Of a DNA stretch of 64,000 nt, positions 47,700-54,741 are shown in pieces. Within the stretch, counting starts at the first letter, position 1, and each line of letters begins with the position of its first letter. The position numbers and the translations under genes are program-made. The stretch is from Pseudohongiellaceae bacterium (GTDB lineage: Bacteria > Pseudomonadota > Gammaproteobacteria > Pseudomonadales > Pseudohongiellaceae): assembly GCA_051008235.1 (NCBI GenBank), contig JBPCXV010000117.1, positions 4,197-68,196 of the forward strand, given 5' to 3'. The notes below the pieces were generated by a model. The model made no database searches, had not been told where the DNA came from, and saw only the letters and a program-made list of their open reading frames with translations.

Positions 47700-48794
47700 A
47701 TGACCGATATCCGTCTCAATCAACTCCGCGACTGGTGCCACACCCAACTGGCGCAACTGGAGCAACTAGAGCAACCACACGATGCGGCCAATCCGGCACC
47801 ATTGGAAGCAGTCAGTGGCGATGCCAGTTTCCGGCGTTATTTCCGGGTGCGTGGCGATGGCTGGCATTATATCGCCGTGGACGCCCCGCCGCAGAATGAG
47901 AACAGCGCCCCTTTCATACACATCGCCAAACTGTTTGCCACCGCCGGTGTGCACACCCCCGCCGTAATCGCCACAGACGCGAAGGCCGGGTTTATGTTAC
48001 TGGAAGACCTTGGCGATGCCCTCTACTTGCCTGCACTACTGGCTTGTCAAACGGAAGCCAACCATGATGAAGCAAGCACACTATATCAGCAAGCGATTGA
48101 TGCACTACTACGCATCCAAACCGGAGTGCCCGGCGAAAGCCTGAACCCGTATAGCCGGGAGGAACTCAGAAGTGAACTGGAATTGTTCCCGGAATGGTTC
48201 TGCCACGCCCTCCTCAAAGTAACACCGAATAAAAGCGAACGCCGTATGCTGGATGAAGTGTTCACCTTCCTTGAAGATGCGGCTCTGGCACAACCCCAGG
48301 TGGCCGTTCATCGGGATTACCATTCCCGTAACCTGTTCCTGCCCGTAGCGGATACGGGAATGCCCGGCATAATTGATTTCCAGGATGCGGTAACCGGAGC
48401 CTACACTTATGACCTGGTATCCCTGTTGCGAGATTGCTACATTCGCTGGGATGAATCCCTGATGTGGCACTGGGCGGAATATTATTTCAAACAGGCCACG
48501 GCACTAAAAATTGTACCGCCCGCCCGCGCCACCGAATTCCGCCGCGACTTTGACCTGATGGGTCTGCAACGCCATCTTAAAGTGCTGGGCATCTTCGCCC
48601 GCCTGCATATCCGCGACAACAAACCGGACTATCTGGCCGATATGCCTTTGGTGATGAACTATTTTCTTGATGTGGCTCGCCGGCACGCTCTATCTCAGCC
48701 GCCGCAGCCCCAGCTACAGGCGCTGTTAAGTTGGTTTGAAGAAACATTGCTGCCAGCAACCCACCCCCATTTCAAACATCTCACGGAAAACTAA
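47700..48794 (+). CDS. amgK: N-acetylmuramate/N-acetylglucosamine kinase (aminoglycoside phosphotransferase fold)
   Basis: APH-like motifs (ASFRRYFRV, HRDYHSRNL, IIDFQDA). It is divergent from lptD and followed by murU, as in Pseudomonas. The ATG at 47700 is preferred. Confidence 0.75.
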   Translation: MTDIRLNQLRDWCHTQLAQLEQLEQPHDAANPAPLEAVSGDASFRRYFRVRGDGWHYIAVDAPPQNENSAPFIHIAKLFATAGVHTPAVIATDAKAGFMLLEDLGDALYLPALLACQTEANHDEASTLYQQAIDALLRIQTGVPGESLNPYSREELRSELELFPEWFCHALLKVTPNKSERRMLDEVFTFLEDAALAQPQVAVHRDYHSRNLFLPVADTGMPGIIDFQDAVTGAYTYDLVSLLRDCYIRWDESLMWHWAEYYFKQATALKIVPPARATEFRRDFDLMGLQRHLKVLGIFARLHIRDNKPDYLADMPLVMNYFLDVARRHALSQPPQPQLQALLSWFEETLLPATHPHFKHLTEN

Positions 48795-49507
48795 TGCAAG
48801 CACTAATACTCGCAGCCGGTTTGGGCAAACGTATGCGCCCGCTAACCGATGACTTGCCCAAGCCACTGTTACAGGTAGGCGGCAAGGCACTAATAGAACA
48901 CCAGATTGAGCGGCTGGTGGCGGCCGGTGTCAGCGATATTGTCATCAATCTCTTTCACCTGGGACATAAAATTCAACAAGCCCTCGGCGACGGTTCCCGC
49001 TACGGCGCACACATTCGTTATTCCCAAGAAGACATCCCTATGGAAACCGCCGGCGGCATTATCAAAGCAATGCCCTTGCTTGCATCCGATTGCTTCATCG
49101 TCGCCAACGCCGATGTCTGGACTGACTTTGATTACGCCAGACTGAAGGCCATCACCAACAAAGATTGCCTGGGTCATCTCGTTCTGGTTAGAGATGCGGA
49201 ACACAATCCACAAGGCGACTTCTATCTTGACTCAAACGGAAGAGTTCACACCGCGCCACCTTCTTCACCCTCATCAACCCCCGAAACAAAAAACCAGCAA
49301 GACCCCCAACACCAGCGCTTAACATTCACCGGCATCAGCGTCCTGCACAAAAACCTGTTCCACGGTCTGCCAGTCCGGCCGTGCCCGGTGGTGCCACTAC
49401 TGCAAGAAGCAATGCAACGCAGCCTCATCACCGGAGAACTCCACACCGGCCGCTGGATGGACATAGGCACCCCGGAACGCCTCAAGAAAGCCAACGCCAT
49501 GCTTTAA
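48794..49507 (+). CDS. murU: N-acetylmuramate alpha-1-phosphate uridylyltransferase
   Basis: Nucleotidyltransferase N-terminus ILAAGLGKRMRPLTDDLPKPLL. It follows amgK with an overlapping stop/start and carries a Pro/Ser/Gln-rich insertion. Confidence 0.78.
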   Translation: MQALILAAGLGKRMRPLTDDLPKPLLQVGGKALIEHQIERLVAAGVSDIVINLFHLGHKIQQALGDGSRYGAHIRYSQEDIPMETAGGIIKAMPLLASDCFIVANADVWTDFDYARLKAITNKDCLGHLVLVRDAEHNPQGDFYLDSNGRVHTAPPSSPSSTPETKNQQDPQHQRLTFTGISVLHKNLFHGLPVRPCPVVPLLQEAMQRSLITGELHTGRWMDIGTPERLKKANAML

Positions 49508-49722
49508 ATGCGCATAGACAATAAATGTGCATAGAAGCGGTTTTAAATGCGCATAGAGCTATTTTAACGGCTCACAGGGAAGAAAAGCCCACATATAACT
49601 AATTGATATTAAAAAGAAAAACTCGCTCAATCAAACACAAAGAGACAAATCGCACAGCAAGGCAATCTACCATGCACATCAAGCTTGTTTAAATGCGCAT
49701 AGAAGGGTAAACTGCGCATAGC
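49505..49722. repeat. Five copies of a 14-bp motif TAAA(T/C)G(C/T)GCATAG(A/C) flanking an AT-rich stretch
   Basis: Copies are at 49505, 49522, 49544, 49690 and 49708. The core ATGCGCAT is an 8-bp palindrome. They lie between the murU stop and the Fic gene start. Confidence 0.8.
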
Positions 49723-49801
49723 ACTTGGCACGGAACCAGCCTCCAGCCCCGTCATACGCACGATACACGCACCATCCACCTTTGCAAGCGAGAACCCGAA
49801 C

Positions 49802-51214
49802 ATGGCAAAACCTGTACCCGAAGAAGCCCTGGCAACCATTGAACTGCTGGTGGCTGCCCACCCCGGTGGAATCAGTTATCAGGATATCCAGGACCAGCTG
49901 CAACCGCCCCTGCCCAGACGCACGCTACAGTCTCACCTGAAGCGCCTCGTCGGCGCGGGTCGGCTGGTAATGGATGGTGAAAAACGCTGGGCTCAATATC
50001 GGATGCCTGCCGTTCAAGTGGCATACACAGGTAAAAGCAGAACCGAGAAAGAACCTGCAACCCCATTGCAACTCTCAAAAAGTGCCATTGAAATTCAAAA
50101 CTATGTAAGGCAACCCATGGCAGAAAGGACACCGGTGTCTTACAAGCGCGAGTTTCTGGATGCCTACAAACCGAATACAGATGCCTGGTTTTCCGATAAG
50201 GAATGCACCCATCTCCAGCAAATCGGTATGTTGACCACGGCGGAACAACCCGCCGGAACCTTCGCCCGACAAATACTTGACCGACTGCTTATTGATTTGT
50301 CATGGAACTCCAGCCGTCTGGAAGGTAACACCTACTCCCTGCTTGAAACGAGACGTCTGATTGAATTCAGCGAAGAAACTGCGGGGAAAGGGAAAACAGC
50401 GGCGCAAATGATTCTTAACCACAAGGATGCCATAGAGTTTCTCGTCGAATCCGCCGAGCAGATTAACCTGAACCGCCATACCATCCTGAACCTGCACGCA
50501 CTGCTGGCGGACAACCTGCTGGATAATTCCAGGGCAGTTGGCGACCTGCGTCGGATTATGGTGGAAATTGGAATGTCCACATATCATCCCTCGGCAGTTC
50601 CACAATTCATTGATGAATGTTTCAATCAAGTTTTGACCACAGCGTCCGCAATCACCAACCCTTTTGAGCAAGCACTCTTCGCACTGGCGCAACTGCCCTA
50701 CCTGCAACCCTTTGAGGATGTGAATAAACGAGTCTCACGCCTGGCCGCAAACATACCCCTGATAAAAGCGAACCTGATTCCGCTCTCATTCACCCGTATG
50801 CCAACCAGAATCTATACGGAAGCCATGTTAGGCGTGTATGAAATGAACCGGATTGACCTGCTCAAAGAGGTTTTTATCTGGGCTTACGAACTTTCCGCCG
50901 AACACTATAAGGTAGTTCGGCAAACACTCGGCGAGGCCGACCCGTTTCGCCTGAAACATCGCAACGCCCTGAAGGAAATTGTCAACACCATCGTAATTGA
51001 ACGCCTGAACAGAAAAAGCACCTATGCTCGTATTGCCGAATTTGCCGAGCAACACATTGGAGCGGATGAGGTGGAGCAATTCAGGGAAGTCACCGAAGAT
51101 GAAGTGTTGGCACTGCATGAGGGGAATTACGCCCGTTATCAGGTAACGCTGGCCAAGTTTCAAGCCTGGCAAACGGTATGGAACAACAAGCCCGACACAC
51201 CGCCGCCCAAGTGA
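49802..51214 (+). CDS. Fic-family protein with an N-terminal winged-helix domain and a degenerate Fic motif
   Basis: wHTH-like LQSHLKRLVGAGRLVMDGEKRWAQY. The Fic core region reads YLQPFEDVNKRVSRL where canonical Fic proteins have HPFxDGNGRxxR. Confidence 0.65.
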   Translation: MAKPVPEEALATIELLVAAHPGGISYQDIQDQLQPPLPRRTLQSHLKRLVGAGRLVMDGEKRWAQYRMPAVQVAYTGKSRTEKEPATPLQLSKSAIEIQNYVRQPMAERTPVSYKREFLDAYKPNTDAWFSDKECTHLQQIGMLTTAEQPAGTFARQILDRLLIDLSWNSSRLEGNTYSLLETRRLIEFSEETAGKGKTAAQMILNHKDAIEFLVESAEQINLNRHTILNLHALLADNLLDNSRAVGDLRRIMVEIGMSTYHPSAVPQFIDECFNQVLTTASAITNPFEQALFALAQLPYLQPFEDVNKRVSRLAANIPLIKANLIPLSFTRMPTRIYTEAMLGVYEMNRIDLLKEVFIWAYELSAEHYKVVRQTLGEADPFRLKHRNALKEIVNTIVIERLNRKSTYARIAEFAEQHIGADEVEQFREVTEDEVLALHEGNYARYQVTLAKFQAWQTVWNNKPDTPPPK

Positions 51215-51318
51215 TATTATTGAATTTGATACCCCAAAGGGGTATCATCAGCAATACATGCGATAACCCTGCTTCGTCGGGAATTACATACTTAACACAC
51301 TCAACTGGAGAGTATATT

Positions 51319-51873
51319 ATGAGTAATTTGGTGAAATGCAGGGACTGCGAGAATGAAGTTTCGCCAAGAGCGAAAGTGTGCCCTCATTGCGGGCTGAAGA
51401 AACCACAGCCATTGCCACCACAGCCAAAAGTATCGGAAGTTATCGGTGGATTAGTGGTGTTAGTGGTGTTAGGATTGTTTGTATGGTGGGCTATCATACC
51501 CACAGAGGAGGAACGTGAAGAGGCAGAAGCCGAACGGGTTGCAACAAGAACCCCTTGCGAGAAAGACTGGCGTGATTGTGTCACTGTTTCTCAATTCAAG
51601 AGGGAAAATAATTTGTGGTTTGAATATGTGGCAAGATGCAAGAGGACGGCAGAAAGCCAAGCCAAATATGGCGATGTGGATTGGGGTGGCTGGTTCACGC
51701 CAAATTTTGATTATTACGGAACCAGTAGCGATATTCAGTCTGGAGTGATTACCCTCATAGACAATGTGGCTCAATATCAAAACGTGTTCGGCGGGAGGGT
51801 TAAAGCTCAAACTGACTGCACTGTCAACCTTAATACCGGCTCACTGGTTGATATTAAGATTGGTGGATATTGA
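51319..51873 (+). CDS. Zinc-ribbon membrane-anchored protein of unknown function
   Basis: CRDC-11 aa-CPHC ribbon, a Pro-rich linker, one TM (VIGGLVVLVVLGLFVWWAII) and an extracytoplasmic ~110-aa domain. The ATG at 51319 follows GGAGAG. Confidence 0.55.
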   Translation: MSNLVKCRDCENEVSPRAKVCPHCGLKKPQPLPPQPKVSEVIGGLVVLVVLGLFVWWAIIPTEEEREEAEAERVATRTPCEKDWRDCVTVSQFKRENNLWFEYVARCKRTAESQAKYGDVDWGGWFTPNFDYYGTSSDIQSGVITLIDNVAQYQNVFGGRVKAQTDCTVNLNTGSLVDIKIGGY

Positions 51874-52161
51874 ATTACCAAAAGCAATTTAACAAACGAG
51901 AAAACGACAAGAGAGCAGTGATGATTAACTTTTTAGCAAGAACTATAGGTGTTCTAATGGTGATGGCTCTGGCAATGTTTATCGGGTCGGTGATTATATA
52001 ATTCCCACTTCATCTCACATATATTGGGTCAGGACAATGGCATTGCAATATAAAATAAGTTACTGTAAATTTCTCGCTCGGGCCGATGATAAATATCTCT
52101 CCAGCCGTGACAATTCGCCTATACTGGCTGTTTGCCCTGTGTGATACCGGTTGATTAAATC

Positions 52162-54741
52162 ATGAGTAAGAATCATCATATCAAGCTATTTATAAGCTAT
52201 GCTCACGAAGATGGGGAGTATAAAAATCAATTTATAAAACACTTATCGCCCTTGAAAACAGAAGGGTTAATACAAGAGTGGCATGATGAAGAAATTAGCC
52301 CTGGCGAGGTTGTGGATGATGAAGTTTGGAAGCATTTTGCTGAATCAAGAATAATGGTTCCTTTAATAAGCCCTGATTACATTGCATCTGATTTTTGTTA
52401 CCTACAAGAACTTAATAAAGCATTGGAAGAAAAGAAAGAGAATAAAAAAGAAGTTGTTCCAATAATCATCAGGCATTGCTCATGGAAGGAAACAGCAATA
52501 AAAGAAATAAAAGTGATTCCAAAGGATGGAAAGCCAATATCTAAGTGGGAAGATGAAGATGCTGCTTGGGTGGATGTAATTAACGCAATAAAAAAGATAG
52601 TTAACAAAATTGAAAATTCTCAATGTGAGAATCATAAAAATAGGGACGATAAGTTGAATCTAAAAGATAGCTTCCGCCAATTTTTAAATGATACTGAAAT
52701 TCAATACGCACACAAAAATAAATCAAATTTAACTCTGAAGGATATTTTTATCTATCCAGATATCAGAAAATCTGAATTTGAACTTGAAAAACCAGATGTT
52801 ATTTTTAGCTCCAATCTACTATATGAGAGATTTTTAGAGACAAAGCTGTATATCATTAGAGGTGATGAACAGTCTGGTAAAACAACATTAATTAAAGTTT
52901 TATTTTCCAATTTAATTAAGAATGGATATTGCCCTATTTACCTAGAATGTGGTGAGATTAAATCGTCAAATTTTAAAAACGCAGTATCCAAACCATTAAA
53001 AAAGCAATATACAGATATGGATTTCAAGACCTACATAGAAAAAGAGAACAAAATTTTGTTTATTGATGATTTTCATGAAATAAGGCTGAACAAACAAGCA
53101 CAATCTAAGTTATTCGAACAAATCAGAGGCGCATTTAAGTTGAACCATATTTTTATAACAGTAGATAGCGACCATAAAATTTACGATGAAGAGTATGCGT
53201 ATCTCACTGATTTCCAACAAATTGAAATCTTACCATTTGGCCATGTATTAAGGGGAAAACTAGTTGATAAATGGAATAGTATTGGAGTGGAGGATACATT
53301 ATCTGATGACGAAAGACATATCGCTCATGATAAAATATGCGATCATATAGATTCTGTATTATCTAAAAATATCGTTCCACCAAGACCAATCTATATTTTG
53401 GCAATGCTACAGACTTTGGAAGCACTTCATCCAGACCAATATCAATTAACTTCTTACGGGCAGTGTTATCAGTACCTTATACTTCAAACTCTAGAAAGAG
53501 CAAACGTTAAAAGAACAAAGTTTGATTCCATCACAAACTTATTGACAGAATTAGCTTATTTCATGTTTTCTGAAGATGCGACATATCTTGACCCAACACA
53601 AATCAATCGATTCATTGAAGCTTATGATGGTAGCTATCTATTTAATAAGGAAGAAAACTATATTCAAAAATTAGTAGACTGTAACATTTTAAAAAATGAT
53701 TCTGGGAATATCCAATTTGGATACAAATATATATATTATTTCTACGTTGCCAAATACTTGGCGAATAATATAAATGATGATACTGTTCAACAGCATATAA
53801 ATAATTTCTGTGAAAAAATTCATCAAGAGAAATTTGCTAACATCCTCATTTTTATTACACACCATACCGATAATCAGTATGTATTTGACCAGATGCATCA
53901 GCACGTATCTGGTATTTTGGGGTCTCAATCGGAGGCGACATTAAGAAAAGATGAAATAGAGTTTTTAGAGAATTTTTTGTCAGATATTCCACAGCTTGTC
54001 ATTGAACAAAGGAATGTAGATGAAGAGAGGCATAAAACGCTACAAAGAAAAGATGATATTGAAAATAAAATGTCTGAACCTGAATTTGAAAATGAAATTG
54101 AGGAGGATACATTTCTTATTGAAGTTGTTCAATCGATAAAAAGTGTGGAAATCATTGGCCAAGTTTTAAAAAATAGGTATGGGTCACTAAAAAAACCCAG
54201 ATTGACGAAAATGTCTAACTCTGCTTTTTCCGTAGGCCTGAGATCTTTAAGCTTATTTATCAAATTGTCTGATTTCTTAAAAAACGACATTACCACATTA
54301 ATTTCAAAACAAATTAGTAAAAATACTAAAATGGATGATGATAAAATTGAAAGAGTAGCAAGAGGGCAATTTATGTATATGTGCTATGGAACTATTTATG
54401 CCGTCATCCAGAAAATATCCCAGTCTATAGGGGCAAAAGAATTAATAGAGATATTCAAGGGAATTGAAGAGGAAAAGAACACGCCTGCGGTCAGCCTAAT
54501 CATATTGTCTATTCTACTAAGGAGTAATATAAATTTTCCTAAACAGGAGGTAGAAAAATTGCTCCAAAAGTTTAAAAACGATAGATATGCCAAAAGGTTG
54601 CTGAAAGAGTTAATAGTTCAGCATTTATACCTAAGGTATGTTGAATATAAAGATATGCAGTGGATATCTAATAAATTGGAAATACCACTTCAAACACAGA
54701 AGCTTTTACAAGGGCAAAAATCACCAAAAGTTAGTGAATAA
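52162..54741 (+). CDS. TIR domain - P-loop NTPase (STAND-like) protein; candidate anti-phage defence gene
   Basis: N-terminal TIR (KLFISYAHEDGEY ... VPLISPDYIASDFCYLQEL, with the conserved Glu). Walker A RGDEQSGKTT and Walker B ILFIDDFHE are followed by a ~500-aa helical C-terminus. The gene is very AT-rich relative to its flanks. Confidence 0.75.
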   Translation: MSKNHHIKLFISYAHEDGEYKNQFIKHLSPLKTEGLIQEWHDEEISPGEVVDDEVWKHFAESRIMVPLISPDYIASDFCYLQELNKALEEKKENKKEVVPIIIRHCSWKETAIKEIKVIPKDGKPISKWEDEDAAWVDVINAIKKIVNKIENSQCENHKNRDDKLNLKDSFRQFLNDTEIQYAHKNKSNLTLKDIFIYPDIRKSEFELEKPDVIFSSNLLYERFLETKLYIIRGDEQSGKTTLIKVLFSNLIKNGYCPIYLECGEIKSSNFKNAVSKPLKKQYTDMDFKTYIEKENKILFIDDFHEIRLNKQAQSKLFEQIRGAFKLNHIFITVDSDHKIYDEEYAYLTDFQQIEILPFGHVLRGKLVDKWNSIGVEDTLSDDERHIAHDKICDHIDSVLSKNIVPPRPIYILAMLQTLEALHPDQYQLTSYGQCYQYLILQTLERANVKRTKFDSITNLLTELAYFMFSEDATYLDPTQINRFIEAYDGSYLFNKEENYIQKLVDCNILKNDSGNIQFGYKYIYYFYVAKYLANNINDDTVQQHINNFCEKIHQEKFANILIFITHHTDNQYVFDQMHQHVSGILGSQSEATLRKDEIEFLENFLSDIPQLVIEQRNVDEERHKTLQRKDDIENKMSEPEFENEIEEDTFLIEVVQSIKSVEIIGQVLKNRYGSLKKPRLTKMSNSAFSVGLRSLSLFIKLSDFLKNDITTLISKQISKNTKMDDDKIERVARGQFMYMCYGTIYAVIQKISQSIGAKELIEIFKGIEEEKNTPAVSLIILSILLRSNINFPKQEVEKLLQKFKNDRYAKRLLKELIVQHLYLRYVEYKDMQWISNKLEIPLQTQKLLQGQKSPKVSE

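Follow-up and report, generated by a model that had tools for sequence, protein, structure and literature searches.

Bacterial NLR-like immune proteins can combine an N-terminal effector, a STAND NTPase and a C-terminal sensor in a single gene, as described for the bNACHT proteins (Kibby et al.) and for Avs (Gao et al., Lee et al.). TIR domains are among the effectors listed for bNACHT proteins (Kibby et al.), and a satellite-borne gene of the 'TIR-NLR' type protects E. coli (Rousset et al. 2022, PMC9122126). DS-8, described in the DefensePredictor study (Science 2026, PMC13092281), is likewise encoded by a single gene: the E. coli protein WP_032203427.1 (1014 aa) has an N-terminal metallophosphatase and a NACHT-type NTPase and protects E. 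coli from phage, and protection is lost in the metallophosphatase mutants D52A and N84A and in the Walker A mutant K375A. The authors of that study reported an HHblits link between DS-8 and NLR_like_bNACHT01 and proposed that the metallophosphatase degrades an immune signal (PMC13092281). Here, we describe a gene at 52162-54741 (+ strand) of a 64,000-nucleotide stretch of contig JBPCXV010000117.1 from a Pseudohongiellaceae bacterium; this whole stretch is referred to as the window, and all coordinates are positions within it. The gene, which we call the TIR-STAND gene, follows the same single-gene logic. Its product is a divergent, TIR-headed member of this known single-gene STAND/NLR-like kind, and does not define a new category of immune system.

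A DS-8 body behind a TIR domain

Profile searches link most of the protein to an anti-phage family that has been validated experimentally. The NCBIfam model DS8_antiphage (NF053861) aligns aa 152-841 with profile positions 294-994 of 994 (E value 4.3e-186, 620.6 bits), leaving profile positions 1-293 unmatched; where DS-8 has its metallophosphatase, the N-terminus here is a TIR domain. Metallophosphatase-headed relatives score 887-1137 bits against the same model, above its equivalog cut-off. Identity to one DS-8 equivalog (P0139, 986 bits) is 37% over aa 160-857, and identity to another (P0183) is 32%. The nearest relative in the databases searched is TIR-headed and only 39% identical. Because the identity to a DS-8 equivalog rivals that to the nearest TIR-headed relative, everything after the TIR domain can be regarded as a DS-8 body. 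A small domain preceding the NTPase, the P-loop NTPase, the helical and winged-helix module and the all-alpha C-terminus are homologous end to end in the two proteins, and K375 of DS-8, the Walker A lysine needed for defense, has a counterpart in K240. The heads differ, being a calcineurin-like metallophosphatase of ~300 aa in DS-8 and a TIR domain of ~160 aa here.

The PADLOC model PDC-S60 (PDLC05050) gives a consistent assignment, with aa 138-852 matching profile positions 162-899 of 906 (E value 3.5e-92). PDC-S60 is a computational candidate only, and our literature search found no relevant paper on PDC-S60 or nSTAND4. Relatives headed by TIR, metallophosphatase, PNP or caspase domains all match the same part of this model, whereas its first ~160-190 positions match no head tested; the model was therefore built on another head. 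Membership in the PDC-S60/nSTAND4 chassis is indicated by this full-length match and by the 1,565 representative clusters that share the body. The corresponding Pfam domain, PF24406 nSTAND_NTPase4 ('Novel STAND NTPase 4'), is marginal, matching the winged helix at aa 476-529 with 25.8 bits against a cut-off of 27; it is above the cut-off in most relatives. An initial annotation of this DNA, made from the sequence alone, had proposed a defense role and suggested a PADLOC classification, which places the protein in PDC-S60 with a ThsB-type TIR. That annotation had allowed that the NTPase could belong to a non-defense family; the profiles instead give a validated anti-phage family. The defense role is further supported by an NLR-like predicted fold and by homologues located in defense islands.

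The features of the gene are as follows.

52162-54741, + strand: whole gene, encoding a TIR domain, a STAND NTPase (nSTAND4/DS-8 chassis) and a helical C-terminal domain (open reading frame, PADLOC, NCBIfam, AlphaFold2)
52162-52641, + strand: TIR effector domain, aa 1-160, with a long linker helix, aa 132-159, at its end (Pfam TIR_2, TIR)
52408-52410, + strand: codon of E83, the catalytic-type Glu of an S-x-[FYW]-C-x-x-(x)-E-L motif (the same residue in all 99 TIR-type relatives)
52654-52836, + strand: small conserved pre-NTPase domain, aa 165-225 (family consensus; AlphaFold2 beta strands at aa 200-204 and 213-216)
52837-53286, + strand: P-loop nucleotide-binding domain, aa 226-375 (conserved K240 and D302, weak Pfam matches, Foldseek)
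52861-52884, + strand: Walker A, GDEQSGKT (K240 codon at 52879-52881)
53053-53070, + strand: Walker B, ILFIDD (D302 conserved in at least 90%)
53299-53766, + strand: helical domain, aa 380-470, and winged-helix domain, aa 478-535 (AlphaFold2, beta hairpin at aa 510-519)
53779-54738, + strand: all-alpha C-terminal domain, aa 540-859, the presumed sensor (separate AlphaFold2 model, DS-8 homology)

The reading frame begins with ATG and encodes 859 aa with no internal stops. The frame and the motifs quoted in the initial annotation are all present as reported: FISYAHEDGEY at aa 10-20 and SDFCYLQEL at aa 76-84 in the TIR domain, the latter containing E83; Walker A, GDEQSGKTT, at aa 234-242, with its lysine at K240; and Walker B, ILFIDDFHE, at aa 298-306. 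All 99 TIR-headed relatives have S76, E83 and K240, and at least 90% of them have D302. Of 70 positions conserved in 90% or more of the family, the protein retains 66, and the four deviations are conservative changes (V/I, Y/F, L/F and V/I). All catalytic residues are retained, and the gene is intact.

Predicted fold and the C-terminal domain

An AlphaFold2 model of the whole protein, built on 99 relatives, reached a predicted local distance difference test (pLDDT) score of 89.2 and a predicted template modeling (pTM) score of 0.76. It orders the domains as TIR, pre-domain, P-loop, helical, winged helix and all-alpha C-terminal. The best Foldseek matches in the PDB were NOD2 (4e-9), the plant TIR-NLR RPP1 (2e-7), NLRP3, NLRP9 and Avs4 (to ~1e-5), and the alignments with NOD2, RPP1 and NLRP3 span ~550-580 columns (E values from 4e-9 to ~1e-6). 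Given this domain order and these matches, the modeled layout is a STAND/NLR architecture, in which an N-terminal effector is followed by a P-loop domain, a helical domain, a winged helix and a C-terminal region. The three-part layout originally proposed, a TIR domain, a P-loop STAND-type NTPase and a helical C-terminus, is thus backed by both profile matches and an NLR-like predicted fold. The pre-domain, with the consensus LxDTEIxxxHxxKxxxxLxDIFVYPDL, is kept in all effector classes of the family.

Within the STAND superfamily, the protein differs from bNACHT and Avs proteins in several respects. Pfam matches to the NTPase are weak (AAA_14, NACHT and nSTAND3), with NACHT scoring 19.6 bits against a cut-off of 26.7. 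The NACHT Walker B signature is D[GAS]hDE (Kibby et al.), compared to DDFHE here and hhhhD[D/N][F/L/Y]xx in the family, in which 126 of 136 members have D or N directly behind the Asp. Based on the Walker B sequence and the sub-threshold Pfam score, we rejected an assignment to NACHT sensu stricto. The C-terminus also sets the protein apart from bNACHT and Avs, being short, non-repeat and not hypervariable. No other NLR-type, Avs or bNACHT model in PADLOC matched at E values up to 1, and no mapping of the protein to Avs7-24 of the recent STAND survey (Lee et al., Nature 2026) could be made.

The initial annotation considered that the C-terminus resembled nothing that could be named and that its trigger specificity would be new. 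The first of these statements is not supported, as the DS8_antiphage alignment given above extends through this region to the last position of the profile. A separate AlphaFold2 model of the C-terminal ~330 residues is confident (pLDDT 91.1, pTM 0.87) and contains 16 helices, with an acidic, low-confidence linker around aa 621-650. The domain is all-alpha and non-repeat, and Foldseek found no significant fold match to it in the PDB, returning generic helical repeats at E values of 0.35 or higher. A phmmer search of the PDB with this region found no sequence match (best E value 0.45). The fold thus has no solved relative, which holds for the whole family and not only for this gene. Among TIR-type relatives, mean column entropy is 2.07-2.18 bits in the C-terminal parts compared to 2.33 bits in the ATPase. 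This level of conservation favors a conserved ligand or a function in assembly and speaks against a gene-specific trigger specificity. A new trigger particular to this gene is thus not indicated: the body is shared by 1,565 clusters, and its C-terminus is no more variable than its ATPase.

The TIR head

Profile searches identify the head as a TIR domain. Pfam TIR_2 matches aa 10-118 above its cut-off (E value 2.4e-13), Pfam TIR matches with an E value of 1e-10, and the best TIR model overall is the ThsB-type model of PADLOC (ThsB1; aa 8-159, E value 2.2e-43). A profile built from 99 relatives matches Cat1 (9mud, E value 6.9e-11), AtTIR (3jrn), ROQ1, RUN1 and AbTir, and E83 aligns with the Glu of the WC..EL motif in solved TIR NADases and plant TIRs, including Cat1 and AtTIR. 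The head therefore has both the fold and the alpha-C catalytic Glu of catalytic TIR domains and is a predicted NADase.

The same fold and catalytic Glu motif are common to Thoeris ThsB, SARM1, AbTir, TIR-SAVED, TIR-STING, SPARTA and Cat1. The TIR domain described here differs from these in being fused to its own STAND sensor. A genome-wide search found no other TIR domain, and no ThsA-like protein was found in the genome; the neighbors of the gene are a Fic-fold open reading frame (ORF), a zinc (Zn)-ribbon ORF and rpe. A Thoeris-like pairing was ruled out on the basis that the genome has neither a second TIR nor a ThsA-like protein. Elsewhere in the genome (G000:C41:3165-5402; L026:1123-3360) is a gene for a 745-aa SIR2-domain protein, the only SIR2-family protein found. 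This SIR2_2 protein resembles SIR2 proteins associated with prokaryotic Argonautes (pAgo) and PADLOC PDC-S65 (E values 2.7e-24 and 4.2e-17), not ThsA, and judging from these matches is likely another nicotinamide adenine dinucleotide (NAD+)-targeting defense gene.

Effector exchange and genomic context in the family

The distribution of the body was surveyed with a word-index-free phmmer search of aa 151-859 against 1.84 billion representatives. This search retrieved 2,766 proteins at E values below 1e-3 and 1,565 representative clusters at E values below 1e-30, nearly all of them matching end to end. To classify the heads, the N-termini of the best 150 body representatives were clustered and the cluster representatives were scanned with Pfam. 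TIR (61) and metallophosphatase (56) heads dominate this sample; the remainder have no head or are truncated (19), or carry PNP/UDP phosphorylase (6), caspase (4), HD-CE (1), trypsin-like (1) or unclassified (2) heads. A CHAT head was present among the matches of the first homology search. TIR is thus the commonest head among the best 150, yet only the metallophosphatase-headed form has been tested. The ~19 representatives that start at the chassis include several that are sister to TIR-headed proteins (for example, P0077 with P0030 and P0036), and could be explained by split genes, truncated calls or headless variants.

A FastTree phylogeny of the body separates a metallophosphatase-dominated clade from a TIR-dominated clade and requires at least 29 head changes; as this is a quick tree with several long branches, only its broad pattern is used. 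The TIR-STAND protein forms a long branch within the TIR-dominated clade, not the metallophosphatase clade. Shuffling of effectors in this way is typical of NLR-like immune proteins in bacteria. In a genome scan, TIR-headed members were found in marine Gammaproteobacteria (Marinobacter, Halomonas, Microbulbifer, Psychrobacter and Pseudomonas) and also in Bacteroidota, Cyanobacteria, Spirochaetota, Saccharibacteria and DPANN archaea. The present gene adds to the DS-8/PDC-S60 family an intact TIR-headed member that is very divergent, with no more than 39% identity to anything in the databases searched.

Homologues are found in settings typical of defense genes. Some adjoin type I restriction-modification (R-M) genes, several of them directly after an hsdS-like gene; others lie within a BREX-like PglX..PglZ cluster or beside a filamentous prophage, and one adjoins ThsB_TIR, SLATT and TIR_2 genes and an integrase. 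Plasmid homologues also exist, for example on a 108-kb Vibrio plasmid (31% identity over 99% of the protein), and no homologues were found in 50,697 phage records. Across ~55 homologous loci there is no conserved partner gene, the upstream neighbors being hsdS-like, nrdB-like or unrelated genes, and the system is therefore considered to consist of one gene. This agrees with the initial description of a stand-alone gene. A two-gene system was rejected, as no small upstream ORF is shared among these loci. Homologues located directly after an hsdS-like gene (L028, L044, L045, L073 and L081) or directly after an nrdB-like gene (L033, L083 and L085) suggest that these are recurrent insertion slots.

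Proposed mechanism and alternative explanations

We consider it probable, at roughly 70%, that the protein is a one-protein NLR-like anti-phage receptor, in which a DS-8 chassis with a ThsB-like TIR head would couple nucleoside triphosphate (NTP)-driven oligomerization to NAD+ loss and abortive infection. The proposal is based on the known behavior of STAND and NLR proteins and on that of TIR NADases that are activated by oligomerization, such as SARM1, AbTir, TIR-SAVED, TIR-STING, SPARTA and plant TNL resistosomes. At rest, the protein would be a nucleotide-bound, autoinhibited monomer. The helical C-terminal domain would sense a phage-derived or infection-induced cue, and NTP binding or exchange at K240 and D302 would then lead to oligomerization. 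The oligomer would gather the TIR domains into a composite active site around E83, and the resulting hydrolysis of NAD+ would cause the infected cell to stop growing or die before phage release. Oligomerization, the NADase output, abortive infection and the use of the C-terminus as a sensor are all proposed by analogy.

Several observations weigh against this receptor model. The protein's DS-8 score falls short of the 790-bit equivalog cut-off, a shortfall explained by the different head. We found no published experiment on a TIR-headed member, so that the defense role is extrapolated from metallophosphatase-headed DS-8. The C-terminal domain is not hypervariable and might serve in assembly instead of recognition. 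The 289-bp gap upstream of the gene shows no convincing sigma-70 promoter on the + strand. Finally, the head is most similar to ThsB-type TIRs, which make a signal. In Thoeris, TIRs of this type produce a signal and do not deplete NAD+.

The last of these points leads to the main alternative, which is that the protein is the same receptor with a signaling output, its TIR domain making a cyclic ADP-ribose isomer or a product of the His-ADP-ribose type for an effector encoded elsewhere. Both ThsB and plant TIR-NLR resistosomes are makers of signaling nucleotides. The ThsB1 model is the best-scoring TIR model, the signal-producing plant TIR-NLR RPP1 is among the best fold matches, and one homologue adjoins ThsB_TIR, SLATT and TIR_2 genes, all of which speaks for this alternative. 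However, the ~55 homologous loci share no conserved neighboring gene, the protein contains the only TIR in the genome, and the lone SIR2-family protein is of the pAgo-SIR2/PDC-S65 type and not a ThsA. In addition, the same body bears heads that are directly destructive (caspase, trypsin, PNP and HD), from which we argue that the head itself is the executioner. We therefore regard a signaling output as unlikely.

Another possibility is that this is a conflict gene with a main role other than phage defense, such as a mobile-element addiction or stabilization module or a stress-triggered death switch. The occurrence of homologues on plasmids, including that of Vibrio, and beside prophages and integrases is compatible with such a role. 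The nearest characterized relative, DS-8, was validated specifically as anti-phage, homologues are repeatedly embedded in R-M and BREX clusters, a typical signature of defense genes, and no mobility genes lie alongside the TIR-STAND gene; we thus consider a non-defense role quite improbable. Least probable of all is that the gene is a xenogene that is silent or lacks function, either preserved by chance or newly arrived, transcriptionally silenced owing to its AT-richness and of no benefit to the host, for despite its position as the lowest-GC segment of the genome and the absence of a clear promoter, an 859-codon frame is very unlikely to stay open by chance at 32% GC, the family-conserved and catalytic residues are retained, and AT-richness is common to homologues in 31 of 31 other hosts and is compatible with function.

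If the receptor model is extended to the family as a whole, the chassis may sense one conserved infection cue, with the head acting as a freely exchangeable executioner. This reading, which we offer only tentatively and at less than even odds, is based on a C-terminal domain that shows the same degree of conservation as the ATPase. If true, this divergent TIR-headed member would give the family a simple enzymatic read-out, NAD+ loss, that could be used for trigger discovery. The exchange of the DS-8 metallophosphatase with TIR, PNP, caspase and trypsin heads would also imply that it acts by killing the cell or depleting a metabolite, and not by degrading an immune signal as the DS-8 authors proposed.

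Base composition and acquisition of the gene

Two further features concern the locus in which the gene lies.

51850-54830, no strand: low-GC block carrying the gene (100-bp GC profile), with a sharp right edge at the start of rpe, 54831
49508-54830, no strand: murU-rpe variable gap, 5.3 kb, containing the Fic-fold ORF, the Zn-ribbon ORF and the TIR-STAND gene (the gaps of relatives are smaller)

The gene order is lptD (- strand), amgK, murU (48794-49507), the Fic-fold ORF, the Zn-ribbon ORF, the TIR-STAND gene, rpe (54831-55535) and trpEGD. The initial annotation named murU and rpe as the flanking genes; both do flank the locus, but murU is not an immediate neighbor, as the Fic-fold (49802-51214) and Zn-ribbon (51178-51873) ORFs intervene. 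GC content is 0.29-0.33 over 52250-54750 compared to 0.50-0.58 in the flanks. In an assembly of 3.12 Mb in 153 contigs with a GC content of 0.542 (standard deviation of 0.043 for 2.5-kb segments), the gene is the 2.5-kb segment of lowest GC (about 0.316; 31.7%), ~5 standard deviations below the mean. The gene is therefore far more AT-rich than its flanks, as originally noted, and no other segment of the assembly is as foreign in composition.

Comparison with related genomes points to acquisition of the gene in this lineage. A search of 40 related genomes, including 24 of the same genus, found no homologue of the TIR-STAND protein, and six same-genus genomes (L014-L019) keep the order lptD-amgK-murU-...-rpe-trpE with a murU-rpe gap of only 0.3-1.6 kb, in which none of the three gap ORFs has a match. 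On the basis of these two findings, the gene appears to have been acquired in this lineage, and the murU-rpe gap is marked as a variable slot. In five of the six same-genus relatives, the gap contains a DjlA-like gene of ~200-243 aa. There is no copy of djlA in the gap here, and tblastn found none anywhere in the assembly, which is 97% complete; the island may have taken the place of a djlA-like gene. No flanking direct repeats, tRNA or other RNA genes, or mobility genes were found as insertion marks at the locus. A chimeric assembly join is unlikely, since the gene is flanked on both sides by host genes within a single contig of 79.8 kb, and their order matches that in relatives.

The initial annotation took AT-richness as a sign of recent acquisition. 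Acquisition within the lineage is supported by our comparison, but its timing cannot be read from base composition, because homologues are more AT-rich than their flanks in all 31 homologous loci with full flanks, by 14 GC percentage points on average and by up to 26. Low GC is thus a family trait and a poor clock. This holds whatever the GC content of the host (loci within L028-L106). Family-wide AT-richness could stem from steady horizontal transfer out of low-GC pools, or from selection for it, for example through xenogeneic silencing of a toxic gene.

Neighboring open reading frames and minor observations

The other two ORFs of the gap are lineage-specific as well. The Fic-fold ORF (49802-51214) encodes a 470-aa protein with a helix-turn-helix (HTH) and a Fic fold (Pfam Fic, 8.6e-10; PADLOC PDC-S04/SoFic, 1e-16 to 1e-13). 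It overlaps by 37 nt with the Zn-ribbon ORF (51178-51873; 231 aa). The GC contents of these ORFs, about 0.50 and 0.46, respectively, differ from the 0.32 of the TIR-STAND gene, suggesting that they were acquired separately from it. Neither ORF occurs in any of the four homologue loci with listed gene calls.

A 16-nt repeat, TAAATGCGCATAGA.., whose core is the palindrome ATGCGCAT, is present four or five times between 49505 and 49722. The first copy lies on the murU stop codon and the last ~80 nt before the Fic-fold ORF, and from their sequence and placement the repeats look like operator sites of the HTH-Fic protein. The 289-bp gap upstream of the TIR-STAND gene contains a 26-codon ORF (51921-52001) for a hydrophobic peptide, MINFLARTIGVLMVMALAMFIGSVII, which may be a chance ORF or encode a small membrane peptide. 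Beyond rpe, trpE and trpG are separated by 24 nt (57126-57151), compared to about 1.6-2.5 kb in the same-genus relatives L014-L019.

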